Below, piece after piece: positions 3,841 to 25,968 of a stretch of 64,000 nt of DNA. The notes under the pieces are model-generated. The model was not told the origin of the DNA, did not search any database, and saw only the letters and a list, made by a program, of their open reading frames with translations. This stretch comes from an uncultured bacterium (lineage in GTDB: Bacteria; Arandabacterota; Arandabacteria; Arandabacterales; Arandabacteraceae), in the NCBI GenBank assembly GCA_964356335.1, contig CAYHHI010000003.1, positions 162-64,161 of the forward strand, written 5' to 3'. The translations under genes were made by a program, and so were the position numbers. Each line of letters opens with the position of its first letter. The stretch's first letter is position 1.

Positions 3841-3955
3841 ATTTGCCTCTCCGAAAAACCTTGAATCTCAAGGAATTTCAATCTACCCTATTCGAGACGG
3901 ATTTGCAAGAGTATTGAATCGGTCGCGTCACGTGGTTTTCCCGGTTTTCGGTGGT

Positions 3956-4801: not shown

Positions 4802-5442
4802 TGAGTCCTGCACGAGTCATAAGCTTCACAGTAAACGGAGAGAAGACCTCGCTCCATGTCGAGGATAATTGGACCCTCTTGAGACTCCTGCGCGAGGAGC
4901 TAGCCCTTACGGGAACGAAGGAGGGCTGCGGCAAGGGTGAATGTGGGGCCTGCACCGTGATCGTTGATGGGAAACCCGTCAACTCCTGCCTTGTGCTTGC
5001 CGTTGAGGTCGATGGCTCCGAGATCTTGACCATAGAGGGTGAAGGAAAAATGGTGGGCAATGTGGGGGGTAGGGGAGTGGATAAGATGAGGGGCAAGGGA
5101 GCCGATGGGGACGATTACAGGACTAGGGCCACGGGCAAGGGTACAAGCAGGGGTACAAGCAAGGGAGATGGCGGGAACGAGGGCACCGGCCTCAGCCCGT
5201 TGCAGCAAGCCTTCATAGACCACGGCGGTTTCCAGTGTGGTTTCTGCACGGCGGGAATGATAATGTCGGCGAGAGCTCTGCTTATGCAGAATCCCGACCC
5301 TACAGAAGACGAAGTCAAAGAGGCGATCTCGGGTAACCTCTGCCGGTGCACGGGGTATAAACCGATCATCGAGGCCATTCTTGACGCCGCATACCGCGAG
5401 CGTGATGAGGGAGAGCGGGTTCGAGACGTGAGCGGTGTCTAA
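4798..5442 (+). CDS. [2Fe-2S]-binding small subunit (CoxS/CutS-like) carrying a ~45-aa Gly/Lys/Arg-rich insertion
   Basis: Plant-type ferredoxin motif CGxGxCGACTV and second cluster motif CGFC...CRCTGY. A low-complexity insert (MVGNVGGRGVDKMRGKGADGDDYRTRATGKGTSRGTSKGDGGNEGTG) separates the two domains. Confidence 0.85.
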   Translation: MMSPARVISFTVNGEKTSLHVEDNWTLLRLLREELALTGTKEGCGKGECGACTVIVDGKPVNSCLVLAVEVDGSEILTIEGEGKMVGNVGGRGVDKMRGKGADGDDYRTRATGKGTSRGTSKGDGGNEGTGLSPLQQAFIDHGGFQCGFCTAGMIMSARALLMQNPDPTEDEVKEAISGNLCRCTGYKPIIEAILDAAYRERDEGERVRDVSGV

Positions 5443-5506
5443 AGAGATCGTATGAGAAATCGTATGTGCCCCTTCTTTGTGGGGAGCATGGAGAACGAGT
5501 TGAAAT

Positions 5507-7921: not shown

Positions 7922-8915
7922 TAGCGTAAGCTGGTCAATCCTTGCGGCCCTCCCGTCAGAACCTAGACGCGGGAGAGTGCATTCCGTATATAGACGCACT
8001 GTCAATATTCTGTGCGGTGATTCCCTCTGGGTAAGCCTGCATCCGCGGGGCGTTCCACATAACGCCTATTCGATAAGTGTGGATTGTGTTGCCTTGGGTG
8101 GCTCTCTTGCGCGACGGCGTGACCGCTTCCTCGATGCCTATGCCGGCGAGATCGCACAAGTCAGCCGGTCGTGGATAGACATCGGGGATAGGAATCTGCG
8201 GGTATCTCTCCACAACGCTCGCATCTGGGACGGCAGCCTCGAGCCTCTTCGGCACTTTTCGAGATGGAACGCCGGCGTGGCCGCGAATCTTCTCGGCGCT
8301 CTCGCGGGGCAAGCCGGGAAGGAAAGTCCGATCAAGTCCCCTTTTCTTGCAGGCGTGCTTGCGAGAAGGGATGGCCGATCGGACTCTACCCCAACGGCCG
8401 CTGCCGGGGCCGTGAATTCGATCCTGCTGATACGGGTCGCACGCATTCTAGATGATCTTGCACTTGCGTGGCGGACGCAGGATGCTGACCTGCTTGCATC
8501 AGTTGTCGGAAACACCATTGGGCTGGGCTTGGGTGTCACGCCATCTGGAGACGATTTTCTCACCGGTCTTCTCGCCGCATCATATATCTTCTCAGATCGC
8601 GATTCCTCACCCCGCAATTCGCCGGACGACCGTGAATTCACATGCACCCTTTCGGCTGTCATTGGACCTCTGACTCACTCGACAACAGCTCCGTCGTACT
8701 TCATGCTCAAGGCAGCTCTCGAGGGTTTGTATCCCGAGCCGCTGGGGGGCATCCTCTCTTCCCTTGGAAGGGGCGATGCGGCTCGTGCGCGCGACTGGGT
8801 CGGTAAGATGCTGGGTCTCGGAGCGACCTCGGGGCAGGACATGCTGGCCGGTGTCCTCTTCTGGTTCGAAGCCTCCGGAATATGCGAGAGATGTCATGAA
8901 GAAAGTGTACATTGA
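7905..8915 (+). CDS. DUF2877-like protein (AllH/YlbF-like candidate)
   Basis: 336-aa ORF overlapping the end of the Mo-subunit gene and preceding FdrA and DUF1116. The gene order mirrors the fdrA-ylbE-ylbF oxamate carbamoyltransferase cluster. The assignment rests on position plus weak similarity. Confidence 0.45.
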   Translation: MILNADSVSWSILAALPSEPRRGRVHSVYRRTVNILCGDSLWVSLHPRGVPHNAYSISVDCVALGGSLARRRDRFLDAYAGEIAQVSRSWIDIGDRNLRVSLHNARIWDGSLEPLRHFSRWNAGVAANLLGALAGQAGKESPIKSPFLAGVLARRDGRSDSTPTAAAGAVNSILLIRVARILDDLALAWRTQDADLLASVVGNTIGLGLGVTPSGDDFLTGLLAASYIFSDRDSSPRNSPDDREFTCTLSAVIGPLTHSTTAPSYFMLKAALEGLYPEPLGGILSSLGRGDAARARDWVGKMLGLGATSGQDMLAGVLFWFEASGICERCHEESVH

Positions 8916-10443
8916 AAAGTCGGCGTACATCGATTCGGTAAGCCTCATGCGTATATCGAAGAAGGTGGGCGATGCTCCCGGAATCTTGAATGCCATGGTG
9001 GCGATGGCCACTGACACCAATCTACTTCTCCTCAAAGAAATCGGTTTTGACACTTCCGGCCTGGGTGCAGTTTCAGCCAACGATATGGTCATAGCCTTGG
9101 ATGCTGAGGATGAGGTTGCACTTGGGGCAGGACTCTCACTTGTGAAGATGGAGATTGAAGGAGGCGCGAGACCACATCGTGACGACACGGCCGGAATCTT
9201 TGTCACCAGAAGCCTTGACAGTGCCATCAAGCAGTACCCGCAGATCAATCTCGTCCTTATCTCGACCCCGGGGCGATTCGCTGCTCATGAAGCCCACAAT
9301 GCCCTGCGTGCTGGAAAACACGTGATGATCTTCAGTGACAATGTATCCCTCGAAGACGAACAGAGGCTTAAGGCTCTCGCAAGCGAAAAGAGCCTGCTTC
9401 TCATGGGGCCGGATTGTGGCACTGCCATGATAGGTGGTGCAGGGCTTGGTTTTGCCAACATGGTTCCGCGCGGCCGGATCGGGATTGTCGCTGCATCGGG
9501 GACGGGTGCCCAGGAGGTCTCATCGATACTGGCGAGGCTGGGACTTGGAGTTTCCGAGATTATTGGCACAGGTGGGAGGGATGTTTCCGGGGCAATCGGA
9601 GGTGTGATGACCAAGATGGGCCTCCGGGTGCTTGTTGACGACGGGCATACAGACGTCATTGTCATCATCTCGAAACTGCCCGGTGCGAATGTGGCAAAGG
9701 AGATTCTTGAAATCGCAAGAGATGGCGGCAAGCCATGTGTAGTGTACTTTGTGGGCTACTCGGGCAAAGAGCGCGAAGCCAATCTCATCTTCACAAGAAC
9801 TCTTACCAGGACTGCCCTGGAAGCGGCACGACTTGCCACTGGCAGGGCCGTCTCGATCACACCTCCTCCTCAGAATAGGGAGGACCATCTCGCCCGGCTC
9901 AGGACGGGACTTCCCCAGCAACGGAAGTTTGTACGGGGCCTCTTCAGTGGAGGGACGCTTGCTCAAGAAGCGGTCTCGATCCTCGGTACTTCCCTCAGAC
10001 CCATGCATGTCAACATGAAGTTGCCTGGCGCGATTGCGCTTGACGATCCTGCGGTGAGCGCGGGGCACACGATTGTTGATCTCGGGGATGACGCCTTCAC
10101 GCGGGGAAGGGCCCACCCCATGATTGACCAGGCGTACAGGCTCACAAGACTCGCCAGGGAAGTGAAAGACCCTGAGACCGCTGTTGTCTTGATGGATGTT
10201 GTTCTTGGATATGGCTGTAATGAAGACCCTGGCGGCGAGATCGCAGCCGTGCTGAGGCGGTCGGGCGGGACACAGGCGTCGGAGATCGGGGAGCCCATAG
10301 TGGTGGCGAGCATCTGCGGAACCCACGGGGATCCTCAGAATTATGACCTCCAGAGGCAGAAGCTCGAAGCCGCGGGGATTCTCGTGGCCGAAACCAATGC
10401 GGAGGCATGTGAATTAGCCCTCGATCTCTTGCGCGACAGGTAA
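8896..10443 (+). CDS. fdrA: FdrA-like acyl-CoA synthetase (AllF-like; succinyl-CoA synthetase alpha-like CoA-binding fold)
   Basis: The internal start MKKVYIEKSAYIDSVSLMRISKKV closely resembles the E. coli FdrA N-terminus. Contains CoA-binding and ligase-CoA domains. The upstream ORF extension was judged spurious. Confidence 0.75.
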   Translation: MKKVYIEKSAYIDSVSLMRISKKVGDAPGILNAMVAMATDTNLLLLKEIGFDTSGLGAVSANDMVIALDAEDEVALGAGLSLVKMEIEGGARPHRDDTAGIFVTRSLDSAIKQYPQINLVLISTPGRFAAHEAHNALRAGKHVMIFSDNVSLEDEQRLKALASEKSLLLMGPDCGTAMIGGAGLGFANMVPRGRIGIVAASGTGAQEVSSILARLGLGVSEIIGTGGRDVSGAIGGVMTKMGLRVLVDDGHTDVIVIISKLPGANVAKEILEIARDGGKPCVVYFVGYSGKEREANLIFTRTLTRTALEAARLATGRAVSITPPPQNREDHLARLRTGLPQQRKFVRGLFSGGTLAQEAVSILGTSLRPMHVNMKLPGAIALDDPAVSAGHTIVDLGDDAFTRGRAHPMIDQAYRLTRLAREVKDPETAVVLMDVVLGYGCNEDPGGEIAAVLRRSGGTQASEIGEPIVVASICGTHGDPQNYDLQRQKLEAAGILVAETNAEACELALDLLRDR

Positions 10444-10475
10444 GGTGAGCAGTAAGTCACGCGACGATAAGGTGT

Positions 10476-11975
10476 ATGCGAAGTGATGACGTAGGGAGTA
10501 AGGAAGCAATGAAGAATCTGCGCGAGCTCCTGCAAAGCGAGCCTGTTGTGGCTAACATAGGGAGTCAGATCTTCGCGAATTCATTGCGCTCGCAAGGCAA
10601 GGAAGTGATTCAGGTTGACTGGGCGATGCCCTGCCGCGGCAACGAGGTCCTCCTTGGCATCCTTGAGAAGATCCGGACGGAAGAGGCGGTGTTCGAGGGC
10701 AAGAGAATGCGCCTCGAGGAGATTGTTGATGCCGCCAACGCCAGGGCGCTCGAGACAATCAACATGGCACATCCGTTTCTGGTGGGTGTGGGTAAAGCCC
10801 TGGAAGACATCCCCGGCATGAAAGAGGATTTGATACTTCATGCCGGACCGCCTGTGGAGTGGGATAGGATGTGCGGTCCCATGAGGGGTGGCGTGATTGG
10901 CGCCCTGCTTTACGAAGGGCGAGCCCGAGACCAAGTGGAGGCTGAAAGGCTTGCCTCATCTGGGAAGATACGGTTTGAGCCCTGCCACCACCATGCTGCG
11001 GTCGGGCCCATGGCGGGCATAATCTCGCCCTCCATGCCTGTCTGGATAATCGAGAACAGGCACTCCGGCAACAAAGCCTTTGCCACCCTCAACGAAGGGC
11101 TCGGCAAGGTGCTCCGCTTTGGGGCCTTCAGCAGAGAGGTGGTTGAAAGACTCAAGTGGATGGAGCAGGTGCTGGCGCCAGTTCTCAGGCAAGCCCTCAC
11201 AATACATGGCGAAGTCGATCTCAGATCTCTAATTGCCCAAGCCCTCCAGATGGGAGACGAGGGACACAATCGCAACAGGGCGGGTACATCGCTCCTTATA
11301 AGGGAGCTCGCCGCGTCAATCGTGATGGCCGATGCGAGCAACGAGGCCAAGAGCGATGTCTTGAAATTCATGAATTCGAACGACCACTTCTTCCTGAATC
11401 TTACCATGCCATCTGGAAAGTGTTGTCTTGATGCAATTGCCGGGGTTCCCGGTTCGAGCGTGGTGAGCACCATGGCCCGCAACGGGACCGAATTCGGGAT
11501 CCGGGTCAGCGGCGTCGGGGACAGGTGGTTCACCGCCCCCGCCCCCAGGGTGAAGGGGCTCTATTTCACTGGCTTCGGCGAGCAAGATGCCAATCCCGAT
11601 ATCGGTGACAGCACGGTATGCGAGACTTATGGCATCGGCGGGTTTGCCATGGCAGCGGCACCTGCGATTGTCCAGTTCGTGGGCGGTTCCCCCTCGGATG
11701 CGACAAGGTACACGCTTAGCATGTATGACATCGCGGTTGGCGAGAGCAGAAACTACAGGATTCCATCGCTGGGTTTCCGAGGAACGCCTACCGGCATAGA
11801 CATCATAAAGGTGGTTGAGACGGCTATCGTGCCTGTAGTGAATACGGGCATCGCCCACAAGAATCCTGGGATCGGACAGGTCGGGGCCGGCCTTGTAGAG
11901 CCCCCCATCGAGTGCTTTGAGGAGGCTCTCGGAGCGCTTTACGAATCCTTGAAGCGATCTTTCAAGGCGGTCTGA
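10476..11975 (+). CDS. DUF1116 family protein (YlbE/AllG-like)
   Basis: Shows the conserved blocks LHAGPP, CHHHAAVGPM, NEGLGKVLRFGA, DHFFLNLTM, GIRVSGVGDRWFTAP, FTGFGEQDANPDIGDS and NTGIAHKNPGIGQVGAG that are characteristic of YlbE-type proteins. Confidence 0.7.
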   Translation: MRSDDVGSKEAMKNLRELLQSEPVVANIGSQIFANSLRSQGKEVIQVDWAMPCRGNEVLLGILEKIRTEEAVFEGKRMRLEEIVDAANARALETINMAHPFLVGVGKALEDIPGMKEDLILHAGPPVEWDRMCGPMRGGVIGALLYEGRARDQVEAERLASSGKIRFEPCHHHAAVGPMAGIISPSMPVWIIENRHSGNKAFATLNEGLGKVLRFGAFSREVVERLKWMEQVLAPVLRQALTIHGEVDLRSLIAQALQMGDEGHNRNRAGTSLLIRELAASIVMADASNEAKSDVLKFMNSNDHFFLNLTMPSGKCCLDAIAGVPGSSVVSTMARNGTEFGIRVSGVGDRWFTAPAPRVKGLYFTGFGEQDANPDIGDSTVCETYGIGGFAMAAAPAIVQFVGGSPSDATRYTLSMYDIAVGESRNYRIPSLGFRGTPTGIDIIKVVETAIVPVVNTGIAHKNPGIGQVGAGLVEPPIECFEEALGALYESLKRSFKAV

Positions 11976-13238: not shown

Positions 13239-14417
13239 CTACTTGAACAGGGCCTTGATTGTGCCCCATGTCGTCGGTTCGATAGCGGAGGGGTCGCAGG
13301 TCGGTACCACAATAGTTGCATGAGCCGGAGCGCGTACATGCATGTTATCGATCCAGACGATGCCACCGGGATCAGAGTAGAGGCGGCACTCGATCACAAG
13401 CCCAGCGTGTCCACCGCTAACTACCCATGACCAATCGGTCATGTCCCAGCCTTCACCTGGGCCTAAGTCAGGATTGCCGCCGGCACTCCCATTGTCGCCA
13501 TTGACATCAGGCGGGTTGGAATCGTTCCAGTGAGCCCAGATTCCACACGAAGGGCCGCTAGTCGGCGTCGTGTCATAGCGCCAGAAACTGCAATACACCT
13601 CATCGCCATCCGCAAGGCCATAGACGTAAGCAAGATAAGCCTGAGGGATACCGGTGGGGCAGCAGTTTTCAAGGCTGAGCGAACGGAAGCCGCTGCAGAC
13701 TGGTTCCGGGATTGTCACGTTGCATGCGGCTATGTTCAGCTGGCAGTTTCCATAGTAACCGATGATGGTGGCTAAGTCCTCCCAATCATACCACCGGTCA
13801 TTGGCTTCGGGGGCAGTATAACTGACGGCTAGATAAGGCCATGAGCCAGTCACTTGAGCATCCTTGCTATAAAGCCTCGCCCATTTGCCCTGTGACGGTT
13901 GATTCTGTTCCTTCATGCAAATGCTGAAATCGCCACCCTTGTGCTGCTGAGCTTCGTAGGTCAGATCCCAGGTGAACCATGCGTTTGCAGCATTGATCTG
14001 GGTGATGTGCGCCGGCGTACCGCTCACCGTGAGTATGTTATTTCCGCAGTTCCAGGTCATCGCGTATTCAGACCAGTCAGGGGGATCGTTGGTGACCTCA
14101 TAGGCGTTCACCGAGACGCTACTTCCGCTGTGATCGTAGCATAACATGTAGAGTGTGGCGCTATTGATAGTCCCTGCTGCGAACTGGGAGAGATCGAACT
14201 TGATGTAGGTGGCCCAATAATCGTAGTTCTCTACGAAGGGTCCACCGACGTACAGCAGAGAGCCGGTAGGATTACCTTGAGTATCCGGATAATCCGACTG
14301 CACACAGACGTCGTCTGTGGGGTAAAGATTGTAAGTCGTCGCGATCACCGCGGGAGCTGACGCCAGGCATGCAAGCAGGACCACCACCGAAACCCCCGAT
14401 AGCTTTCTTTCCTTCAC
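13239..14417 (-). CDS. Secreted Cys-rich protein with a DNRLRE-like N-terminal domain and a C-terminal TWGTIKALFK tail
   Basis: GTG start preceded by GGAGGTGG. Signal peptide KERKLSGVSVVVLLACLASAPAVIA. Motif LYMLCYDHSGSSVSVNAYEVTNDPPDWSEYAMTWN resembles the DNRLRE domain. Many Cys residues. Ends in ...EPTTWGTIKALFK. Confidence 0.45.
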   Translation of the reverse strand: MKERKLSGVSVVVLLACLASAPAVIATTYNLYPTDDVCVQSDYPDTQGNPTGSLLYVGGPFVENYDYWATYIKFDLSQFAAGTINSATLYMLCYDHSGSSVSVNAYEVTNDPPDWSEYAMTWNCGNNILTVSGTPAHITQINAANAWFTWDLTYEAQQHKGGDFSICMKEQNQPSQGKWARLYSKDAQVTGSWPYLAVSYTAPEANDRWYDWEDLATIIGYYGNCQLNIAACNVTIPEPVCSGFRSLSLENCCPTGIPQAYLAYVYGLADGDEVYCSFWRYDTTPTSGPSCGIWAHWNDSNPPDVNGDNGSAGGNPDLGPGEGWDMTDWSWVVSGGHAGLVIECRLYSDPGGIVWIDNMHVRAPAHATIVVPTCDPSAIEPTTWGTIKALFK

Positions 14418-14871
14418 GTTCCACCTCCTCTGGTTATGACCGGCTGCGATACCCAATTGAAACCGATACGAAGGTCCGGATCACCTCCGGCAATTGATGA
14501 CCCACATCAACTGCTAATCAATACAGATAGCGGCTCCACTCGTCTGCGATCGGGCGATGACGATTTTGGTCATTATGGCCTTAGTTCACACACCGAAACG
14601 TACTGTTTCAAGTGGTACGTCAAGCCTCTGTTGAAAGCGAAACCCTGGCTGTTGGCAAGCCTGGGACACTTACGCACCTCCACCGGATTAGATTGTGACA
14701 TAAATCGACGCCGCAGTCAAGCCTTGCCTTAGGGCGGGCTGGGATCGGGAACAGACACATGATCCTTGGGTAGGACTTAGGGCGGGCTTACGGAATTCCG
14801 GTAGTGGATCTTACGGGTGCGCCATGACGGGTCGCGGGTAATCTGGGTCCTCTGAAAAAGCGGGGCCAGGC

Positions 14872-15630
14872 CTAATTTGCGTGCTTTGCCAGCCACTCGG
14901 TTATCTGTCTCATCGCCTCGGGATTGCCCTTGAAGTTACGAGTCTTGTAGTCGTCGTAGCTTTCCCGCTTGTCCCTTGCGAAGGCATAGGCATGATCGGT
15001 GCCAGGTACGACTGTCAGGGTGACGTCGCTATTCCCCGATAGAAGCAAGACATCCCTGATGTGCTCGTGGCACGCAAGCTGCGTGATGAAGTCGGAAGCG
15101 GCATATATGATGAGCACGGGCTCCGTGACTTGGCCATAGATCTGCGACAGGTTGATGTTCAACTGCCCTCGCCAATACTCCACCGTCCGGTCGTCCATTA
15201 TGCGGTTGTCCTTGTTTACGTATTTCCCAAGGGCAGGATTCCTCCGGAGGATTGCGGGCAGGGAGTCACCCCGGGCTGCCGATGTCATAAGGTCGAGATA
15301 CTCCTTTAGCGAATCCTTGTCTGCGTCGGTGATGTTGCGGTATACGAATCCTGCAAACCCGCGCGACGCGAGTTCGCACTGGGCACGAGCCGGGCCGGCG
15401 CATGAAAGGGGTGGCCCAAACGGAAAGGATAGGAGAAGCAGCAAAAGACACGAGCCTGCACCAACAGTAATCGCAATGCCGCTCTTGCGTTCACCCGTTG
15501 CTCTCACGATCAAAGCGCCGCCCCCGAGAAGCATACAGAAAGTCGAACTTGATCCCGGGAAACCTCTCCTAGCTAACCAACCCTCCCCGGAGACCTGCAG
15601 CCCAACAGGCCTGATGCCACTACCAACCAA
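14872..15630 (-). CDS. Hypothetical secreted protein resembling only the C-terminal half of an alpha/beta hydrolase (no GxSxG nucleophile); may be a decayed gene
   Basis: Internal signal-like segment. Conserved PVLIIYAASDF and GTDHAY blocks typical of the acid/His part of esterases, but no nucleophile elbow. Confidence 0.3.
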   Translation of the reverse strand: MVGSGIRPVGLQVSGEGWLARRGFPGSSSTFCMLLGGGALIVRATGERKSGIAITVGAGSCLLLLLLSFPFGPPLSCAGPARAQCELASRGFAGFVYRNITDADKDSLKEYLDLMTSAARGDSLPAILRRNPALGKYVNKDNRIMDDRTVEYWRGQLNINLSQIYGQVTEPVLIIYAASDFITQLACHEHIRDVLLLSGNSDVTLTVVPGTDHAYAFARDKRESYDDYKTRNFKGNPEAMRQITEWLAKHAN

Positions 15631-15660
15631 CTTGCAGGTCTCCTGGCCTGACCCCGCTGG

Positions 15661-16947
15661 TTAGAAGTCGAAGTCCATGATCAGGGCGAACTCATTCTCT
15701 TTAACAGGCTTGGCTTTCCCGGTCTCTCTGTGGGTGAACTCGGCGTGCAAGGCGACATTGACCGCTGTCCAGTCACCCAGGTAGTATCTCAGCAATCCCG
15801 AGTAAGCCTTGATCTCCGCCTCGGAATCATAGCACGGCGGCTTGACCCAGTTGTACATTGCAGACGCGACAAGCCTATTATTGAGAAGCCCGGCCCAGTC
15901 AAGTTCGGCAAACCCGCCGGTAAACTCGTAGTCTTCAGTCGGCTTCAACGTGTTGAGTTCCTTGGGATCCACGCCCTTCATGAAGAAGGCCTGAAGATTC
16001 AGATTCTTCCAGTTCAGGCTTGCGTCAGCCCCAATCCTGTAAAAAGCCTCGTTAGATGCCATGACAGACAGAGTGTCCGCGGTGGTGTCGGGCAATTCGA
16101 TTATTCTGGATGCATACTTCGGCTGCCACCCGTAATAGGCAAATCCACTGACCCTATGGCCTGCACTCTGCCCGTCGCCCTTGAAGAAGGTCTTAGACAT
16201 GTTCAGGTACGCGTCTTTGTACTTGTTGTTGTCCGGATTCCCACCATTGCCGTTGACCACGCCGGCTGCGTACTTGAATCCACATCGGCAATGCCCCGTG
16301 GCCTCCAGACCTATCTGGTTATCGTCAAACACGTACGTGTTCCCGGGTGATCCAAACGCATAGACCTCGTAAGGCTCGGAAAGATAATAGCTGCGCTTGG
16401 AGCTGATGGCATGGTAGGCGGGCTCAAACCTGCCGATCCTCAGATTAAGTAGGTCGGGGGCTATGTTGCTGAATACGATGTTGGCGGATTCAAGTGCCGC
16501 AAGCTGAGACGGGTTGTCTCCGGAGGGACCGGGGCCTGATTGGTCTGCCGCCGGCTCGTCAATCCTGGGTGTGTAGATAAAAAGAAACGAGATGTTCTTG
16601 TGCAGGACCCCGGCCGCAAGGAAATCGAAACCGAATAGGTTGAAGGTGTTTTCGGTGGTCTTCTGTTTGCCAACTTCAGCGTCATAAAGCGAAAAGCCCG
16701 TGGTTGTTCTTATGGAAAGCGGCGGGGGTGTGTCAAACACGTTCTTCTCGCCACCGACCTGTCCCGGGACCTGGTAGCCATTGTCTCTGAAGCGTTGACC
16801 GAAATCATTCAGTTTGATGAACGCCACGTGGCACATATTGCAGTTGAAGCCGTGTTTCCTCGCGAAAGCAGGGATGGCATCGCTCTTCGTCGGCACGAGG
16901 AGAAAGATTGCTGCTGCCAGCAAGATGAGAGCGCACATAGTTTTCAT
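15661..16947 (-). CDS. Cyc2-like fused monoheme cytochrome c / outer-membrane beta-barrel porin
   Basis: Signal peptide MKTMCALILLAAAIFLLVPTKSDA, then a single CxxCH motif (NCNMCHVAF) right after cleavage. The remaining ~380 aa are rich in alternating hydrophobic residues and end in a terminal Phe (LIMDFDF), typical of OM beta-barrels. Sits 12 bp downstream of a diheme CCP gene on the same strand. Confidence 0.55.
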   Translation of the reverse strand: MKTMCALILLAAAIFLLVPTKSDAIPAFARKHGFNCNMCHVAFIKLNDFGQRFRDNGYQVPGQVGGEKNVFDTPPPLSIRTTTGFSLYDAEVGKQKTTENTFNLFGFDFLAAGVLHKNISFLFIYTPRIDEPAADQSGPGPSGDNPSQLAALESANIVFSNIAPDLLNLRIGRFEPAYHAISSKRSYYLSEPYEVYAFGSPGNTYVFDDNQIGLEATGHCRCGFKYAAGVVNGNGGNPDNNKYKDAYLNMSKTFFKGDGQSAGHRVSGFAYYGWQPKYASRIIELPDTTADTLSVMASNEAFYRIGADASLNWKNLNLQAFFMKGVDPKELNTLKPTEDYEFTGGFAELDWAGLLNNRLVASAMYNWVKPPCYDSEAEIKAYSGLLRYYLGDWTAVNVALHAEFTHRETGKAKPVKENEFALIMDFDF

Positions 16948-16958
16948 TTTGGTCTCCT

Positions 16959-18023
16959 TTACTGTGGAAACTCAGACGCCGGAACGGGCTTCACATCAGC
17001 GACCTCTGGATTGGTGCTTGTCATCGCCCGTTTCATAAAGGCAACCAACGCCGCTTTTTCTTGAGCAGACAATCCGAGTGGGACAATCAACGGATCGAGG
17101 TTGGGATCGCCCGCACCTCCGCCCTTGTTGTAGAATTCCACGACAGCCTCGAGCGAGATCTCGCCGCCGGTGTGCATATACGGCGGACGCAAAGCAACGT
17201 CACGGACGGTCGGCGTCTTGAATGCGCCCTTATCTCTTGGGTCTTTGGTCACTTCATACCTTCCGTCATCCGGCTTGGCTCCGGCCGCCGGCGCGACACC
17301 AACGTTGTGGAATCTGCCATCTGTGAAGTTGGCTCCCCAGTGGCACGCAGTGCAGTGCCCCTTGCCGTTAAAGATCTCAAGGCCCTTCTTTTCCTGGCAA
17401 GTCAGTGCTGACTCTTCACCTCTCACGTATCTGTCGAACGGCGAATCTGTTGTGACAACCGTTCGCTCGTAAGCTGCTATCGCCTTGGCTACCTGATCGA
17501 GCGTGATGGGTGTAGTCCCGAAGACTGCCCTGAATTCATCGACGTAGCCAGGGAAATCGTTCAAAGTCCTTATCATCCCGGCATGAGTGTTACCCATCTC
17601 TACAGGGTTCGCGATCGGCCCCGTTGCCTGTTCTTCGAGGGTTGCGGCTCTTCCATCCCAGAATTGCAGGGGCAGGTAAGCGGCGTTCGAAACCGGGGGA
17701 GATCTTCGGCCGCCGCGCTGTCCGGCTATACCCACACTGGTAGGACCCTTGTCGGACCATCCCATCGCCGGGCTGTGACAAGTGGCACAGCTAACCGTAT
17801 TGTCCTTCGAGAGGCGGGGGTCGAAGTAGAGCTGTTTACCTAGCGCGATCAAGCCAGGGGACATAGGATTGTCCGGGGGTATGGGCACAGGTGGCAGATT
17901 GCCGATCTTCTGCGGGCCGTAAGAATGAAATCTCACTGTTGTGACGGGCGTTGCGTCGCCTGCAAGAAGAACCTGTGGAAGCACCAAAACTGAGAGTACG
18001 AGCAGGATCTTGATTTTGGACAT
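16959..18023 (-). CDS. Diheme cytochrome c peroxidase (CCP/MauG family)
   Basis: Two CxxCH motifs (CATCHSP and CTACHWG) plus FKTPTVRDV and PYMHTG blocks conserved in bacterial CCPs. N-terminal signal peptide. Confidence 0.85.
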   Translation of the reverse strand: MSKIKILLVLSVLVLPQVLLAGDATPVTTVRFHSYGPQKIGNLPPVPIPPDNPMSPGLIALGKQLYFDPRLSKDNTVSCATCHSPAMGWSDKGPTSVGIAGQRGGRRSPPVSNAAYLPLQFWDGRAATLEEQATGPIANPVEMGNTHAGMIRTLNDFPGYVDEFRAVFGTTPITLDQVAKAIAAYERTVVTTDSPFDRYVRGEESALTCQEKKGLEIFNGKGHCTACHWGANFTDGRFHNVGVAPAAGAKPDDGRYEVTKDPRDKGAFKTPTVRDVALRPPYMHTGGEISLEAVVEFYNKGGGAGDPNLDPLIVPLGLSAQEKAALVAFMKRAMTSTNPEVADVKPVPASEFPQ

Positions 18024-18447
18024 ACTGCCCTCCCTGGTTAGGTTTGAATCTATTCGGATTCGGATTCGAGGTCTGGTGCCGGTTCCTTCAGCCCTCCTTC
18101 CTTATGTTACGTCCCGAAATCTGACATGCCAGAATCATTACCGGTCATGCCTGGGTCCCGGGCCTCACGAGCCAAACTTGACAATTCTCCCCTTGTCTAA
18201 ACTGAGGCTGCCAGCAATTGGCAAAATGGAACTCACTCCGTCAAGACCTTCACCGTTGCGATAATCACCCTCGGATACTGATTCTACAACGACCCCAGCG
18301 CAGGTCAAATGCTTTTTGGGGAGGCTTAACCCTGTGGTTGATCCTGGCCTGATTTCCTTCTCAGAATGCTGTAAAGCGACCACCCGAATCTTCCGACATC
18401 TAAAAGTAGGGGGGAAAGTAGGGGGGAGGGAAGCAGGGGGTGTTAAA

Positions 18448-19083
18448 ATGACAAAAACCCAATTATGCGCTGTAGCCACATTCGCCGCCCTTGTTCTGAT
18501 GCTAACAGCAAGTCTGGCGGCGGAGGACCAGGGGCCGCATCAGGCTGCACAGCAGTATGTGTGGGCGACAGCGTCAGCGTCCCCTTCGCTTGATCCGGGC
18601 TTCGCAGGCTATTGGAAGTACTGCATCACCATCAACTGGGACATTACCAAGTATGGTGGCAAGCCGCATGGCCTGAGTCATATCTCCATTGTGCTGGGCC
18701 TCGAGAATTGTCCACTAGTGTGCAGACCGGGTTTCTTCGCATCAGCCGAAATGGCCGGCGGCGGGTCAGGCGAGGGGGGCTGTACTGCCCAGTACTACTT
18801 CGAATTCAACTGCAAAGGCGATCCCACGATCCCGCGGCCAGTTCCGACCATCAAGTTTGAACCTTATGGTGCCTGTCTGCCTGGCATCGCTGGCACGGCA
18901 AATGTGTGTTTCTACTCGCTGGCGCAGCCGAGGCCGGCCCAGACCTATACCGATGCCGTTTGGATGAAGTTTGGCCGAAATATCACAGCCGGTCCGATCG
19001 AGGGGATGCTTCCGAGCTGCATCACTCCAGAAGTTAGTGTCGAGCGATCGACATGGGGAGCGATCAAGGCGCTGTTTGACTGA
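18448..19083 (+). CDS. Secreted Cys-rich hypothetical protein ending in STWGAIKALFD
   Basis: ATG preceded by a G-rich/RBS region. Signal peptide MTKTQLCAVATFAALVLMLTASLAA. Ten or more Cys. The C-terminal tail nearly matches that of the 13239..14417 protein. Confidence 0.4.
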   Translation: MTKTQLCAVATFAALVLMLTASLAAEDQGPHQAAQQYVWATASASPSLDPGFAGYWKYCITINWDITKYGGKPHGLSHISIVLGLENCPLVCRPGFFASAEMAGGGSGEGGCTAQYYFEFNCKGDPTIPRPVPTIKFEPYGACLPGIAGTANVCFYSLAQPRPAQTYTDAVWMKFGRNITAGPIEGMLPSCITPEVSVERSTWGAIKALFD

Positions 19084-20781: not shown

Positions 20782-21025
20782 GTTAGGTTCACGCCGATGC
20801 TAGTGCCTTGCACGGCAGGTGCCGCCATATCCAGCCGCTGAGATTGCCGTGTTTGGCTTATCTTTGCTGTTCCTGCCACGGGTTACGACCCACCCATAAT
20901 GTAGGGCACGAGACCAGCCGATATTGATACGGGAAGCCGTACGCCTTTATGTCTGGTATTGCGCAGACCCACATTTGGCATGGGTCTTAAGACAGCACCG
21001 GGTTCTGATTTTGGAGGAGGGTCAA

Positions 21026-23251
21026 ATGCCGCGTCGCAAGTATCCAAACAGGTCATTTATGAATTCCATTCTGACCAGTCTTGCTTTGCTTGTAGCCATG
21101 CTCGCGGCGGGGCCGAGTGTTGCAGGCACGCCTGTCAACAGTGGCGCCGATGCAGAGCGCGAGAATGCACCAGGCCTGGTTCCAAGCGTGGCGCAGTCAA
21201 GGCCGGTCATGGCCGAAGAACCGGCTCCGGGCAAGGGCTTCGTTCCACCGCCTTTTTATCTTCCAAGCGTCGATGCTCCAGCGCCCGGCATCTCTCTTCC
21301 CCTTGTGGCCAGGTTCGACTGGCGCGAAACAGGCAAGGTCACATCGGTCAAGAACCAGGGCGCATGCGGATCGTGTTATGCCTTCGCCTCAGCCGCCACC
21401 CTCGAGTCTAAGCTCCTCATAGACGATGAAGGCACTTTCGATTTCTCCGAAAACAACATCAAAGAGTGTGATTACTATGGGTCAAGCTGCGGCGGCGGCA
21501 ACTTCTGGCGGGTAGCCAATCTTCTCTCGACCAGGGGCACGGTGCTCGAGGCTTGTGATCCCTATGTCGCGAGCGACGTTACCTGCAAGGGCACCTGTGC
21601 TTACGCAGCGACGCTTCTTGACTGGCGTGAATTCTCGCACGACGCGATCCCGGACGTCGCCACAATCAAAGCCTATCTTCAGACTTACGGGCCCATCTAT
21701 ACCGCCATGAATGCGGGTCACGGCGATGCCTGGGACACCGAGTTCGGCCACTATGATGGTTCATACACGCTTTACTGCGGTGCGACGGGCACCTCAAACC
21801 ATGCTGTCTTGATAGTGGGTTGGGATGACAACTTGACTCACGCCGACGGACAGGGCGCCTGGATCGTGAAGAATAGCTGGGGGACATCATGGGGTGGCGC
21901 ATGCGGCTATGGCACCGAGCGGGGTTACTTCACGCTTGCCTACGGCTCCGCCAACATAGGCTCGTGGGCGTCATTCCTCTCCACCTGGCAAGCCTATGAC
22001 ACAGACGGATCACTGCTCTACTACGACGAAGCCGGGTACACCAACAGCGTTGGCTACGGTACGACAACTGCCTGGGGCTTCTGCAAGTCCATCCCTGTGG
22101 ACGATGTCATCTTGAAGCGGGTGGAGTTCTGGACCTGTGATGCGACCCCTGACGTTGACGTTTACATCTATGATAACTTCAACGGCACGTCGCTCTCGAA
22201 CCTTATCGCAAGCAAGCTCAATAGCTCCTTCGATCTGCCGGGTTATCATTCGGTAGAGATCGCATCCGTTCCTCGGGTGTCCTCCGGTAACGACGTTTAT
22301 GTGGTCGTTAAGATCACCGACGCTTCTTATAAGTATCCCTTGACCTATGACTCGGTCGGCCCGAGATCGGCGGCAACCTCCTATATAAGCTCTAATGGTT
22401 CATCATGGTCGGAATGGACTCCGGGCGATCTCGGCATACGGCTCAGAGTGACCAAGGATGGCGTGTGTAGCGTCGTCACCGAGAAGCCGGCGCTGGTCAG
22501 TGTCCGTGACTTGCCCGGTGATAACGGCGGCCACGTCAGGCTCACCTGGAAAAGGAGCGCCTATGATGACGAAGGGACTTCGCCTGAGATCAAGCGCTAC
22601 AAGATCTGGCGCAAGCGAACCGAGGTGCTGTATTCAACCCTGAGCCTCGGGGGGGGCATGCAGGAAAGTGACGTACCCGCCACTCCCAGGGGGCCCTACG
22701 AACACGGTGAGACTGGTGCCGCATGGGAGCTGGTTGGGGTTGTGCCGGCTTCGGGCGCGTGCAATTACACCTTTGATGCCCACACATCTTGTGACTCGAG
22801 CTCCGGGGATGCTTGCTGGACCAAGTTCTACATCTCCGCACACACGGGCAGAGTGGGGCAGCACTATGATTCCCCTGTCGATAGCGGCTACTCGGTGGAT
22901 AATCTCCTCGCCGTTGACAACGGGTGTCGTGAAGGCAAGCCGGTTCCCGACGTTCCAGATGAGGGAGGCGTGAGAGTGACACATCTCGAGGTCCCCGAGC
23001 CCAATCCCGGGGCGGGCGGCTTCGTCATCCGCTATGATATCGGCACGTCGGGCTGGGTCCGGCTGGACGTTTATGACATTGCCGGCAGACGTGTCGCGAT
23101 GCTTGTTGACGGGGACACAGACGCTGGCCGCCACGTGGCCAGATGGGATTCGAGGATGGCCGATCAGTCCTGCGTGGCGCCCGGAATGTATTTCGTGAGG
23201 CTAATGACGCGTACCGAAACCCACACTGCAAAGCTGGTCCTGGTGCGATAG
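21026..23251 (+). CDS. Secreted papain-like cysteine peptidase (C1 family) with T9SS-type C-terminal sorting domain
   Basis: RBS GGAGGAGG then ATG. Signal peptide. Catalytic Cys motif QGACGSCYAF, His block NHAVLIVGWDD, and NSWGTSWG. The C-terminus GGFVIRYDI...VRLDVYDIAGRRVAML...GMYFVRLMT...KLVLVR is Por_Secre_tail-like. Confidence 0.8.
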   Translation: MPRRKYPNRSFMNSILTSLALLVAMLAAGPSVAGTPVNSGADAERENAPGLVPSVAQSRPVMAEEPAPGKGFVPPPFYLPSVDAPAPGISLPLVARFDWRETGKVTSVKNQGACGSCYAFASAATLESKLLIDDEGTFDFSENNIKECDYYGSSCGGGNFWRVANLLSTRGTVLEACDPYVASDVTCKGTCAYAATLLDWREFSHDAIPDVATIKAYLQTYGPIYTAMNAGHGDAWDTEFGHYDGSYTLYCGATGTSNHAVLIVGWDDNLTHADGQGAWIVKNSWGTSWGGACGYGTERGYFTLAYGSANIGSWASFLSTWQAYDTDGSLLYYDEAGYTNSVGYGTTTAWGFCKSIPVDDVILKRVEFWTCDATPDVDVYIYDNFNGTSLSNLIASKLNSSFDLPGYHSVEIASVPRVSSGNDVYVVVKITDASYKYPLTYDSVGPRSAATSYISSNGSSWSEWTPGDLGIRLRVTKDGVCSVVTEKPALVSVRDLPGDNGGHVRLTWKRSAYDDEGTSPEIKRYKIWRKRTEVLYSTLSLGGGMQESDVPATPRGPYEHGETGAAWELVGVVPASGACNYTFDAHTSCDSSSGDACWTKFYISAHTGRVGQHYDSPVDSGYSVDNLLAVDNGCREGKPVPDVPDEGGVRVTHLEVPEPNPGAGGFVIRYDIGTSGWVRLDVYDIAGRRVAMLVDGDTDAGRHVARWDSRMADQSCVAPGMYFVRLMTRTETHTAKLVLVR

Positions 23252-23289
23252 ATACTCCAACATGCCAATCGGTTCCGATGCGACAAGAA

Positions 23290-23613
23290 GCCGCAGCGGG
23301 GTCTGAGTCGGAGGCGAATGTAGTATTGAGCCGGAGATCAGCCCCGCAAGGCGGAGTCAGTGGTGCGTCGCCGCCGGATGCCCTTCGGTTAGAACCCCAA
23401 GCCCTTCGGGCCATCCGTCGGCTCGGCACGGCGATCGCAGCGTGTGTGGAACGTTCGCGAAGAGCCGTAGCGGGGTCTGGATCGGAGGCGAATGTAGTAT
23501 TGAGCCGGAGATCAGCCCCGCAAGGCGGAGTCAGTGGTGCGTCGCCGCCGGATGCCCTTCGGTTAGAACCCCATGCCCTTCGGGCTATCCGTCGGCTCGG
23601 CACGGCGATCGCA
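23290..23613. repeat. Near-identical 150-bp direct tandem repeat (two units, 24-bp spacer, about 97% identical) in the intergenic region between the two C1 peptidase genes
   Basis: Unit 1 is 23290-23439 and unit 2 is 23464-23613. They differ at about 5 positions. Each unit contains two CUUCGG tetraloop hairpins (gcccttcggg) and a ccgcaaggcgg hairpin. This repeat creates the spurious minus-strand ORF 23025..23603. Confidence 0.8.
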
Positions 23614-23703
23614 AGGGCTGCGAAATGTCTTCCCTTGCCATCATGGCTGCCGATTTGTAGAGTTACCTATGACCACGACGCGGTCTCCGGGAGGGTGCCC
23701 TTG

Positions 23704-25968
23704 GTGAAGAGAATATCCGGTGTGGCTGTTCTTCTTGCGCTGATTCTCTTCACGTCGTCAATCTCGTTAGGCACTGAGGACGCCCCCCATGGATATGGCA
23801 TTATCCAGATGGGGTTTGAACGCACCCCCTTCAAAGCGAAGGTGCCGGTCGGGCTTGCACCTCTGCCCGCCAGGTATGACTGCAGAGAACGGGGCGAGGT
23901 GAGCCCCGTAAAAGACCAGGGCTCATGCGGGGCGTGTTACGCGTTTGCCTCGCTTGCCGATTTCGAATCCAAACTGCTGGTTGCTGGCGAGGGCCTGTTC
24001 GACTTCTCCGAGAACAACATCAAGGAATGCCAGTACTATTACTATCTGGGCGTGTGTTTCGGCGGCGCCTACTGGTTAGCGGCCAATTACCTTTCCACGG
24101 CAGGCACTGTGTGGGAATCATGCGATCCGTATCAGTCATCGATGACGGGCTGCAAGTCAACCTGCACTTACCTGAAGACCCTGCTTGACTGGCGTGCAAT
24201 CTCGGAACGCTGGATAGCGGATACCGACGTTCTGAAAGCTTACATCATGGCCTATGGCCCGATCTATGTGCATGTCTATGCAGGCGTATCTGGTGATCCT
24301 TGGCAGCTCCAATTCCAACGTTATGATGGACAGTACACCCTGTATTACGATGGAGGAGCCACGGAGCCAAACCACGCGGGGCTGATAGTTGGCTGGGATG
24401 ACAACATCAGTCACGTGGGTGGGCAGGGTGCCTGGATTGTGAAGAACAGCTGGGGGACAGAGTGGGGTGGACCCTGTGGATACGGCGACGAAAGTGGCTA
24501 CTACACTATCGCATACGGCTCTGCGCTGATCGGTTGGGGTGCATCGTTTCTCTATGAGTGGCAGGATTATGATCCCAATGGACGGCTGCTGTATTATGAC
24601 GAAGGCGGCTATACCAAGAGTGCGGGCTTTGGGAGCACGACAGCATGGGCGCTGTGCACATTCGTCCCTGAGGAAGACCTTCTCCTCCAGCGCGTGGAAT
24701 TCTGGTCATTCGATCCCATCGCCGATGCAGACGCCTATATCTATGATGATTTTGACGGCGGCACCCTGTCTCATCTGCTGACCAGCCAGCTCGACTACAC
24801 GGTCGATCTCATGGGCTATCACTCCATAAAGCTCGCCGAGCATCCCTTCGTCCGCGCCGGCGACAGCATATACGTGGCCATGAAGATCACGGCCGAATCG
24901 GACACCGCTCCGATTCCGTTTGATCGCTACGGACCCAAGACGCCGCATGCCTGCTACACGAGCCCAGATGGCAGCGTATGGTCGGAATTCACCAGGGGCG
25001 ACATCGGCATCAGATTGCGTGGTATCGTTAACACGGACAGGACGCCACCTTCGATATCGATTTCGGTGTTCCAGAATCCATATATAACGAATCATCTCGA
25101 CGTTTACCTGATATCCTCGGAGGCGCTGGCCACCTCCAGCGTCAGCGTTAAGGTGAATAGTTCCCCGATTACGATGGTAGCCAATGACGTACTGAAGTAT
25201 GTGTACCGTGGTGATTATGACCTCTGCTGTACGGGGCCGCTTCCTATCGAGGCCTGCGCCAGAGATCTGAGCTACAATGACTCCTGTGCTACACGCGTCT
25301 TATTCTCATCGTTGATCCTCGCATCATCCGGAGGGACTGCGAGGAGTCTTGACGGCCGGTGTGAAATGCGCATTCCGGGTGGGGCGACACGGCGGGATGC
25401 ATACGTGCTTGTTTCCGAGGTGAGAACGGGCAGCCCAGGGCGAGGGGCAGTCTATGAGATCTCGCCAGCGGGACTCGACCTGAGCGAATTCGTGGAGATC
25501 GGGATCGGTTACGCTGACACCACGAGCGAGCCTGAGCATCTATGCATTGCGAAGGTTACGGGCGAAGGCGTGAGACAGCTTGAGTCCTTCGTCGATCGGG
25601 AGCGGCAAAGGATTGTCGCGTACGCAGACTCCCTGGGGTCTTACGAACTCTACGAGTCTCGTGATGTTCTGAGCTCGCCCTTAGGCAGCGGCAGCCTGAT
25701 TCTCTCTCAGAATTATCCTAATCCTTTCCAGGGGCGAACCAACATATCCTTCCAGGTCCCGCAAGCGGGGCACCTCACGCTCTACGTTGTCACAGTGGAA
25801 GGAAGAATCGTGACCAAGCTCTGGGAGGGTGACGTGACCTGCGGTATGCACCGTCAGGAGTGGGACGGAACCGACTCGCGAGGGAAGAAGGTCGCGAGCG
25901 GCGTCTATTATTTGCGAGTCGAGACCATTGGCGGCAATGCCACGCGAAAGATGGTAATCTTAAATTAA
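23704..25968 (+). CDS. Second secreted C1-family cysteine peptidase, paralogous to the upstream gene, with canonical Por_Secre_tail (T9SS) C-terminal domain
   Basis: GTG/TTG start after GGGAGGG. Signal peptide KRISGVAVLLALILFTSSISLG. Motifs QGSCGACYAF and NHAGLIVGWDD. The C-terminus QNYPNPFQGRTNISF...LYVVTVEGRIV...SGVYYLRVE...RKMVILN is the TIGR04183-type hallmark. The annotated long ORF start (23143) runs through the tandem repeat and was rejected. Confidence 0.8.
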   Translation: MKRISGVAVLLALILFTSSISLGTEDAPHGYGIIQMGFERTPFKAKVPVGLAPLPARYDCRERGEVSPVKDQGSCGACYAFASLADFESKLLVAGEGLFDFSENNIKECQYYYYLGVCFGGAYWLAANYLSTAGTVWESCDPYQSSMTGCKSTCTYLKTLLDWRAISERWIADTDVLKAYIMAYGPIYVHVYAGVSGDPWQLQFQRYDGQYTLYYDGGATEPNHAGLIVGWDDNISHVGGQGAWIVKNSWGTEWGGPCGYGDESGYYTIAYGSALIGWGASFLYEWQDYDPNGRLLYYDEGGYTKSAGFGSTTAWALCTFVPEEDLLLQRVEFWSFDPIADADAYIYDDFDGGTLSHLLTSQLDYTVDLMGYHSIKLAEHPFVRAGDSIYVAMKITAESDTAPIPFDRYGPKTPHACYTSPDGSVWSEFTRGDIGIRLRGIVNTDRTPPSISISVFQNPYITNHLDVYLISSEALATSSVSVKVNSSPITMVANDVLKYVYRGDYDLCCTGPLPIEACARDLSYNDSCATRVLFSSLILASSGGTARSLDGRCEMRIPGGATRRDAYVLVSEVRTGSPGRGAVYEISPAGLDLSEFVEIGIGYADTTSEPEHLCIAKVTGEGVRQLESFVDRERQRIVAYADSLGSYELYESRDVLSSPLGSGSLILSQNYPNPFQGRTNISFQVPQAGHLTLYVVTVEGRIVTKLWEGDVTCGMHRQEWDGTDSRGKKVASGVYYLRVETIGGNATRKMVILN

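Follow-up and report, generated by a model that had tools for sequence, protein, structure and literature searches.

In a 64,000-nucleotide stretch of contig CAYHHI010000003.1 from an uncultured bacterium of the Arandabacterota (the whole stretch is called the window below), a gene encoding a Cyc2-like fused monoheme cytochrome-porin was found directly downstream of a gene encoding a diheme enzyme of the CCP_MauG superfamily. The two genes form a conserved cassette across distantly related bacteria. What is new here is a Cyc2-like porin-cytochrome with a dedicated diheme partner, and with it a new partner class for the MauG/BthA-like branch of diheme enzymes. At about even chances, the cassette is proposed to be a self-contained ferrous-iron (or other extracellular reductant):H2O2 oxidoreductase.

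The Cyc2-like porin-cytochrome

Both open reading frames (ORFs) were recovered on the minus strand where the original prediction had drawn them, and the gene pair and its porin-cytochrome comprise the following features:

16959..18023, minus strand: gene for the diheme enzyme (354 amino acids, aa), CCP_MauG superfamily, periplasmic, with a cytochrome c peroxidase (CCP)-like scaffold and predicted MauG-type heme ligation
16948..16958, minus strand: intergenic spacer of 11 nucleotides (nt), which on reading the sequence holds the Shine-Dalgarno sequence AGGAG
15661..16947, minus strand: gene for the Cyc2-like fused monoheme cytochrome-porin (428 aa)
16876..16947, minus strand: putative signal peptide of the porin-cytochrome, residues 1-24, with cleavage between ...KSDA and IP as judged from the translation
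16810..16878, minus strand: Cyc2-type cytochrome motif, A24-I-P-A-F-A-R-K-H32 GFN C36-N-M-C-H40 VAF I44-K-L46
15664..16716, minus strand: beta-barrel porin domain of 16 strands, residues 78-428, predicted with AlphaFold2 and Foldseek and ending in a beta-signal-like ...IMDFDF

The spacer reads TAA-AGGAGACCAAA-ATG, and its 11 nt correct the 12 bp given earlier; because the Shine-Dalgarno sequence sits within this gap, the arrangement indicates that the two genes are translationally coupled. Among the 55 ORFs of the window, just these two carry a CxxCH motif.

The 428-aa protein was originally described as having a signal peptide, a CxxCH and a C-terminal aromatic residue, and all three are present: the lone CxxCH (residues 36-40, N35-CNMCH-VAF) directly follows the predicted signal peptide, and the last residue is Phe. 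The CxxCH and its flanking motif are invariant in 30/30 aligned homologues. Across the same 30-sequence alignment, the stretch IPAFA(R/K)K(Y/H)GFxCxMCH...KLND.GQ is invariant or nearly so, including the Met within CxMCH, and the C-terminal DF(D/A)F is conserved.

These properties can be compared with the criteria published for Cyc2 by Keffer et al. 2021 (PMC8406198), namely a single CXXCH after the signal peptide, an upstream AXPXFAR[Q/K][T/Y] motif described as 'unique to Cyc2', a PXL motif four residues past the CXXCH, a minimum length of 365 aa, and a porin of 16 strands with 4RJW and 2O4V as modelling templates. Of the nine positions of the AXPXFAR[Q/K][T/Y] motif, the window protein fits eight, with His32 replacing Tyr/Thr, while the clade consensus ...ARKY fits fully; a screen with the strict regular expression would lose the window protein and retain most of its orthologues. 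The Ala at position -1 of the signal cleavage site is the first residue of this motif. The PXL motif is absent from the window protein, which has Ile44 in place of Pro; Leu46 is invariant, Pro occurs in 3/30 clade members, and distant superfamily members mostly have P-[KR]-L downstream of the CXXCH. According to the same authors, PXL is not specific to Cyc2 (PMC8406198).

At 428 aa the protein exceeds the published minimum length, and the AlphaFold2 model (predicted template modelling score, pTM, 0.71) contains 16 beta-strand elements between residues 78 and 427, so that the topology check suggested with the original prediction came out in favour of a predicted barrel. Foldseek placed OprP (2o4v, E 2.7e-11) and OprO (4rjw, E 2.9e-10) among the top nine PDB matches of the barrel, together with PorB and OmpF. 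The Cyc2 architecture that had been proposed for the 428-aa protein is thus upheld by the published N-terminal motif (His32 apart) and by a 16-strand porin matching the OprP and OprO templates. Like A. ferrooxidans Cyc2, Mariprofundus Cyc2-PV1 and Leptospirillum Cyt572 (FeGenie clusters 1-3), it combines a signal peptide, a CXXCH at the mature N-terminus, an upstream sequence close to AXPXFAR[K/Q][Y/T] (eight of nine positions), an OprP/OprO-like porin of 16 strands, a length above 365 aa and a C-terminal aromatic residue. Searches of Pfam, NCBIfam and PDB sequences with the protein returned no match, and its assignment as a predicted Cyc2-like member of the Cyc2 superfamily is made on motif, fold and indirect homology.

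Homologues in the protein database number at least 748, share about 60% identity and carry the labels Eisenbacteria, Zixibacteria, Ignavibacteria, Bacteroidetes and Phycisphaerae; every one is annotated 'hypothetical'. An exhaustive profile search gave 2890 cluster representatives at E <= 1e-3; among the matches listed, the Cyc2 motif was present in every one that bears an N-terminus, and the names of the cluster members were uninformative, all being 'hypothetical'. A tblastn search against plasmids gave one weak N-terminal match, to a Methylocystis plasmid. Given the invariant CxxCH with its flanking motif, the homologue counts and the predicted barrel, the cassette signal is far beyond chance.

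The diheme enzyme and its linkage to the porin-cytochrome

The features of the diheme enzyme that bear on its chemistry were assigned mainly by alignment:

17961..18023, minus strand: putative Sec-type signal peptide, residues 1 to ~21, with cleavage between ...VLLA and GD as judged from the translation and without a lipobox Cys
17775..17789, minus strand: first heme motif, C79-A-T-C-H83, of the peroxide-binding heme; aligns with the N-terminal CxxCH of MacA, CcpA and the Paracoccus CCP and is conserved in the linked orthologues
17727..17729, minus strand: Ile99, at the position of the bacterial CCP distal His (Pseudomonas aeruginosa His71) in the MacA alignment
17340..17354, minus strand: second heme motif, C224-T-A-C-H228, of the six-coordinate heme, followed by Trp229 (alignment)
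17130..17132, minus strand: Tyr298, predicted axial ligand of the six-coordinate heme in place of the CCP Met (alignment)

The protein matches Pfam PF03150 (CCP_MauG) at E 5e-59. When ranked against PDB sequences, its best matches at about 1e-63 are the peroxidases Geobacter MacA and CcpA and the Paracoccus, Pseudomonas and Nitrosomonas CCPs, followed by MbnH (7e-46) and MauG (3e-35). Its best NCBIfam scores are to the MauG and MbnH models, at values below the equivalog cut-offs (MauG TIGR03791, 248 vs 443.85; MbnH TIGR04039, 224.7 vs 362.85), and its C-terminal segment matches MbnH and MauG better than the CCPs. Within that segment, Tyr298 aligns with the Met of MacA ('vkiM'), with Tyr294 of MauG ('lFYNKy', in an identical F-Y-N-K context) and with the Tyr of MbnH ('diYseGG'), and the 1eb7 coordinates place Met275 of the P. 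aeruginosa CCP at query position 298. Ile99 is placed by the alignment of 'siGHgw' in MacA with 'svGIag' here and by an offset of 28 in 1eb7.

Residue conservation was counted over 70 linked orthologues, whose median identity to the window protein is 67%. Tyr298 is invariant (70/70) and Ile99 is present in 67/70. The peroxide pocket residues Gln132, Pro136 and Glu142 (MauG Q103, P107 and E113), the inter-heme Trp122 and both heme motifs (C79xxCH and C224xxCH) are each conserved in at least 69/70. Arg107 (17703..17705), which replaces the Asn of the CCP Ca site, is found in 64/70. The equivalent of MauG Trp199, two residues before the second CxxCH, is Gly222 in the window protein, with Gly in 64/70, Ala in 6/70 and no Trp. 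Directly after the second CxxCH, Trp229 (17337..17339) is conserved in 65/70 and could provide an alternative electron entry route.

In the original prediction the upstream gene was called a classic diheme CCP/MauG-family gene; the reading as a classic CCP does not survive the invariant Tyr for the Met ligand and the Ile for the distal His. CCPs are defined by Met-His ligation, MauG and BthA by a Tyr-His pair that supports a bis-Fe(IV) state (Rizzolo et al. 2019, PMC6405878). With the canonical bacterial CCPs (MacA/CcpA, Pseudomonas, Paracoccus, Nitrosomonas) the window enzyme shares its best whole-sequence similarity, two CxxCH motifs, the inter-heme Trp, the Gln/Pro/Glu pocket and a periplasmic location; it differs in the two ligand substitutions, in Arg107, and in having a dedicated, apparently co-translated outer-membrane partner rather than cytochrome c551, azurin or PpcA. 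With MauG, MbnH and BthA it shares the Tyr at the axial-ligand position and a peroxide heme that is predicted here to be five-coordinate and open, without a distal His. Like MauG (preMADH) and MbnH (MbnP), it is encoded beside a specific partner protein. It differs from these two in its sub-cut-off scores, in the missing Trp199 equivalent and in its context, where the sole conserved neighbour is the Cyc2-like gene and not a mau cluster or mbnP. Combined, these comparisons identify the protein as a predicted MauG/MbnH/BthA-type Tyr/His-ligated enzyme on a CCP-like scaffold and not a classic CCP. Because Ile replaces the distal His, no reductive activation would be expected of it.

The diheme gene lies directly upstream of the porin-cytochrome gene, on the same strand and amid unrelated flanks, in 4/4 independent contexts (Zixibacteria, Eisenbacteria, Ignavibacteriaceae and an unclassified bacterium), and gene order and a spacing of 10-20 nt are constant across the annotated contexts. 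In a wider distribution scan, where each GTDB species was represented by one genome, a relative turned up in at least 563 genomes, and linkage was examined in the best 80, all of which are metagenome-assembled genomes (MAGs). Their hosts are Eisenbacteria (the closest, at 73%), Zixibacteria, Ignavibacteriota, Bacteroidota, Aminicenantes and other Acidobacteriota, Phycisphaerae, Krumholzibacteriota, Calditrichota, Fibrobacteraceae, Lentisphaerae, Polyangia and others, mostly sediment heterotrophs. In tblastn, 74 of the best 80 loci reach at least 36% identity to the porin-cytochrome, and setting aside two that begin at a contig edge leaves 72 that could be evaluated. The diheme gene was directly upstream on the same strand in all 72 (43-87% identity, more than ten phyla), and the linkage still holds where the porin-cytochrome is just 36-39% identical and the diheme enzyme 52-54%. 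The remaining six of the best 80 loci, at about 30% porin-cytochrome identity, are without the diheme gene.

These statistics effectively refute an incidental adjacency, in which an ordinary periplasmic peroxidase would happen to lie beside an unrelated heme porin with no functional coupling: although interaction of the two proteins is predicted from genes alone and each family is also found without the other, linkage at 72/72 loci amid otherwise unrelated flanks, with order and spacing kept to such low identities, makes this explanation extremely improbable.

The porin-cytochrome is about 60% identical across phyla, compared with 15-50% among canonical Cyc2 proteins (Fig. S7 of Keffer et al., PMC8406198). 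Because both proteins are far more conserved than canonical Cyc2, the pattern points to strong constraint together with horizontal spread of the two-gene cassette. A neighbourhood census of the cassette loci found no third conserved gene, and an apparent 20-locus cluster of one was discarded as antisense shadow ORFs over the pair itself. Likewise, no oxidase, bc1, quinol dehydrogenase or other cytochrome is co-conserved in the census, and none is encoded in the window.

Several individual loci depart from the general pattern. One Ignavibacteria MAG carries two copies of the cassette (L041, L071). Cassette contigs also occur in bins with monoderm or atypical labels, Eubacteriales (L043) and Chloroflexia (L085), and the L085 copy is degenerate: its porin-cytochrome is matched in part, and its diheme gene has neither Trp122 nor Glu142. 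The pattern suggests that genes were mis-binned or are decaying. In one lineage (L006/L007), a multiheme cytochrome of ~425 aa with faint MtrC/OmcA-like matches (7387..8676, minus strand) is convergent to the cassette, and a CDF cation-efflux gene (3873..4775, plus strand) lies just upstream; neither is conserved in any other lineage.

The relatives that lack the diheme gene provide a contrast in synteny. An hhalign comparison of the cassette clade with the Nitrospira family gave a probability of 100% and E 7.6e-55; its 383 columns begin at the heme motif and reach the C-terminal DFAY, and on this profile evidence the CCP-less relatives are judged to be true full-length homologues. A database search seeded with a Nitrospira relative returned only unnamed Nitrospira proteins and no named homologue; a cyc2 homologue has been reported with FeGenie in Ca. 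Nitrospira defluvii. In Nitrospira, the gene immediately upstream of the Cyc2-like gene encodes a class I monoheme cytochrome c, and in every Nitrospira locus examined (L082-L084) the gene that follows encodes a conserved 282-aa protein with a SHOCT C-terminal domain (2649..3497 in L082). In two Acidobacteriota, the Cyc2-like gene is followed by genes for a c4-type diheme cytochrome, a small beta-sandwich protein and COX2, a layout of Cyc2, periplasmic cytochrome and oxidase as in the rus operon. Because CCP-less relatives hold cytochromes or COX2 next to the Cyc2-like gene, the diheme enzyme occupies the usual electron-acceptor slot of Cyc2. The originally proposed periplasm-to-outer-membrane redox couple is therefore borne out in part: it fits the synteny, with soluble c-type cytochromes and COX2 filling the adjacent slot in the relatives. 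Overall, the cassette clade differs from other Cyc2 proteins in having a Tyr-ligated diheme enzyme as its constant partner where others have soluble cytochromes and an oxidase, in its conservation across phyla, in the loss of the PXL Pro from most members, and in the Met of CxMCH.

Proposed function and competing explanations

The proposal of a ferrous-iron:H2O2 oxidoreductase builds on the observed architecture, motifs, ligand substitutions, strict linkage and synteny contrast; the physiological role, Fe2+ as the donor, the direction in which electrons flow and the bis-Fe(IV) chemistry are inferred from them. The porin-cytochrome would span the outer membrane as a porin of 16 strands and carry its one c-type heme at the N-terminus, on the periplasmic side. 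After entering the pore, Fe2+ (or a different small reductant) would reduce this heme, as proposed for Cyc2, and the heme would hand single electrons to the co-translated periplasmic diheme enzyme. The latter would react with H2O2 from the diferric state, without prior reduction, to give a stable bis-Fe(IV)-type intermediate comparable to those of MauG and BthA, and this state would await two one-electron deliveries from the monoheme donor, yielding water. The net reaction at the envelope would be 2 Fe2+ + H2O2 + 2 H+ -> 2 Fe3+ + 2 H2O. Both Fenton reagents, Fe2+ and H2O2, would thereby be removed at the envelope independently of the host respiratory chain; with both proteins located outside the cytoplasmic membrane, the cassette would conserve no energy. 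Such independence would account for the movement of the pair as a two-gene unit among anaerobic or microaerophilic sediment heterotrophs.

An envelope precedent for H2O2-driven Fe2+ oxidation exists in EfeB. In EfeUOB and in the Cyc2 pathways of the rus operon (cyc2-cyc1-coxBACD), as in the proposed route, a periplasmic heme protein receives electrons from an iron-oxidising heme protein that is itself outer or periplasmic; the proposed route differs in that its acceptor is H2O2 at the diheme enzyme rather than O2 at a membrane oxidase, and in having no link to iron-uptake genes.

Several lines of evidence favour this reaction. The porin-cytochrome has the sequence and fold characteristics published for Cyc2, the PXL Pro and His32 apart, the peroxide pocket of the diheme enzyme is conserved, and true peroxidases are the nearest relatives of that enzyme with solved structures. 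Tyr/His ligation need not prevent peroxidase turnover, since BthA forms bis-Fe(IV) yet reduces H2O2 catalytically with an external donor (PMC6405878). A peroxidase with its own donor also makes sense because the hosts are mostly sediment heterotrophs and the window encodes no other cytochrome.

Other observations weigh against the proposed peroxidase reaction. The cassette proteins are known from sequence alone, and the connection to iron oxidation is drawn from motif, fold and homology to homologues that are themselves unvalidated. An invariant Tyr for Met and a missing distal His characterise MauG and MbnH, enzymes that act on proteins encoded alongside them rather than as peroxidases. The ferric/ferrous potential of a Tyr/His heme should moreover be low, whereas canonical CCPs have an electron-accepting heme of a different kind in this respect. 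In the AlphaFold2 model, the heme domain of the porin-cytochrome has low predicted local distance difference test (pLDDT) values of 28-50, and its placement relative to the barrel and to the partner is tentative. Finally, consensus scores for Fur, PerR and OxyR boxes upstream of 62 cassettes equalled those of shuffled controls.

The ligand substitutions are also the starting point of the main alternative explanation, considered unlikely, in which the diheme enzyme modifies the porin-cytochrome in the manner of MauG or MbnH and the adjacency of the genes reflects an enzyme-substrate relation. Here H2O2 (or O2 with a reductant) would generate bis-Fe(IV), which would oxidise, hydroxylate or cross-link residues or alter the heme environment, and the product would be a protein-derived cofactor or altered heme required for porin-cytochrome function. 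The invariant Tyr298, aligned with MauG Tyr294 and the MbnH Tyr, the absent distal His, the C-terminal segment nearer to MbnH and MauG, and the best NCBIfam scores (sub-cut-off as they are) would all fit, as would the fact that the MauG and MbnH genes adjoin those of the proteins they modify (PMC6405878). On the substrate side, the heme-stabilising Pro of PXL has mostly been lost in the clade while the Met of CxMCH is invariant, and the related Cyt572 has been reported to have an unusual heme (PMC8406198). Whole-protein similarity, however, is far higher to the peroxidases (1e-63) than to MbnH or MauG, and the hole-hopping position of MauG Trp199 holds Gly222 instead of Trp. Furthermore, the conserved aromatic residues of the heme domain (F28, Y58 and others) are common to the cassette clade and the CCP-less Nitrospira family, so no clade-specific target residue emerges; the CCP-less homologues appear to work with ordinary cytochrome partners; and BthA demonstrates that Tyr ligation is compatible with peroxidase turnover. 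In its most specific form, a dedicated bis-Fe(IV) maturase of an outer-membrane cytochrome-porin that installs a protein-derived cofactor, a cross-link or a modified heme, the explanation is rated slightly lower again. If true, an outer-membrane protein would for the first time be a target of MauG-type post-translational modification, and the clade would form a chemically separate 'Cyc2' sub-class with an activity, and possibly a substrate, other than iron oxidation.

A role in respiration or electron export appears improbable. The diheme protein would then act mainly as a periplasmic carrier in dissimilatory iron metabolism, moving electrons between the inner membrane and the porin-cytochrome, whether Fe(II) is oxidised to yield energy or Fe(III) or another extracellular acceptor is reduced. 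Geobacter MacA, the closest solved relative, was first proposed as an electron carrier, a multiheme cytochrome lies nearby in one context, and MAG studies of the same phyla infer iron cycling from such genes (PMC7914226, PMC8478452). A simple carrier, however, would have no need of the strictly conserved peroxide-binding pocket; no oxidase, bc1, quinol dehydrogenase or other cytochrome accompanies the pair; and with both components apparently outside the cytoplasmic membrane, the cassette alone could not conserve energy.

The distinction bears on how such genes are read, as cyc2 is the main metagenomic marker gene for microbial iron oxidation. FeGenie-based studies have reported cyc2, mostly of 'cluster 3', in Aminicenantes, Krumholzibacteria, Zixibacteria, Ignavibacteriales and Eisenbacteria, with iron oxidation inferred (PMC7914226, PMC8478452, PMC7005843). 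Because these are the same phyla, the porin-cytochrome family has most likely already been counted as Cyc2. No report of Cyc2 pairing with a CCP/MauG or Tyr-ligated diheme enzyme was found in the Cyc2 papers or by full-text search, in a body of searched literature that is incomplete, and no description of an outer-membrane heme-porin partner for the CCP_MauG superfamily was found in the literature searched. The cassette suggests that many metagenomic "iron-oxidation genes" work with H2O2 rather than in respiration. If the cyc2-like genes of these heterotrophs are always tied to a peroxide-reacting enzyme and not to respiration, the inferences of iron oxidation need revisiting, and the genes would mark protection of the envelope from Fenton chemistry (Fe(II) with H2O2) at redox interfaces, or else a new protein maturation, and not lithotrophy. 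Additionally, the cassette offers a compact two-protein test system for electron transfer from a monoheme porin to a periplasmic partner, and it bears on the role of the Tyr-ligated bis-Fe(IV) state outside tryptophan tryptophylquinone (TTQ) synthesis.

DNA signals and neighbouring genes

Sequence signals around the cassette were sought by consensus and folding, and one further feature was recorded:

18281..18308, minus strand: promoter-like site TTGACC-16 nt-TAGAAT, 10/12 positions, ~260 nt upstream of the diheme gene, a consensus match only

The promoter consensus scan gave 8 sites in the region compared with 2.1 expected, a count that carries no evidence of function. Just past the stop codon of the porin-cytochrome gene, an 11-bp inverted repeat (GGAGACCTGCA...TGCAGGTCTCC, 15590..15645, minus strand) was found; its hairpin folding was no better than that of shuffles (z -0.31), and a terminator is not claimed.

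Elsewhere in the window are genes for secreted C1 peptidases, a thiolase, AllG, an enzyme of the xanthine-dehydrogenase family and an ammonia-lyase for aromatic amino acids (histidine-type). A cluster at 3914..11975 (plus strand) contains the xanthine-dehydrogenase-family molybdoenzyme, a CoA-ligase-like protein and AllG (a subunit of oxamate carbamoyltransferase), which suggests purine and allantoin catabolism. The ORF downstream of the cassette (14872..15630, minus strand) matches just the C-terminal part of the dienelactone hydrolase profile, and its Eisenbacteria homologue (L008) is 462 aa long; the window ORF may be truncated or its start mis-called. Two tandem papain-family (C1) peptidases with lectin-like domains are encoded at 20924..23251 and 23143..25968 (both plus strand), the second with a FlgD Ig-like C-terminal domain, consistent with a proteolytic heterotroph. 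The cassette is flanked by genes for two secreted proteins (13239..14456, minus strand; 18316..19083, plus strand), one with a DNRLRE/CBM96 domain and the other without a family match, which end in the same C-terminal motif, TWG(T/A)IKALF(K/D), possibly a shared surface-sorting signal.

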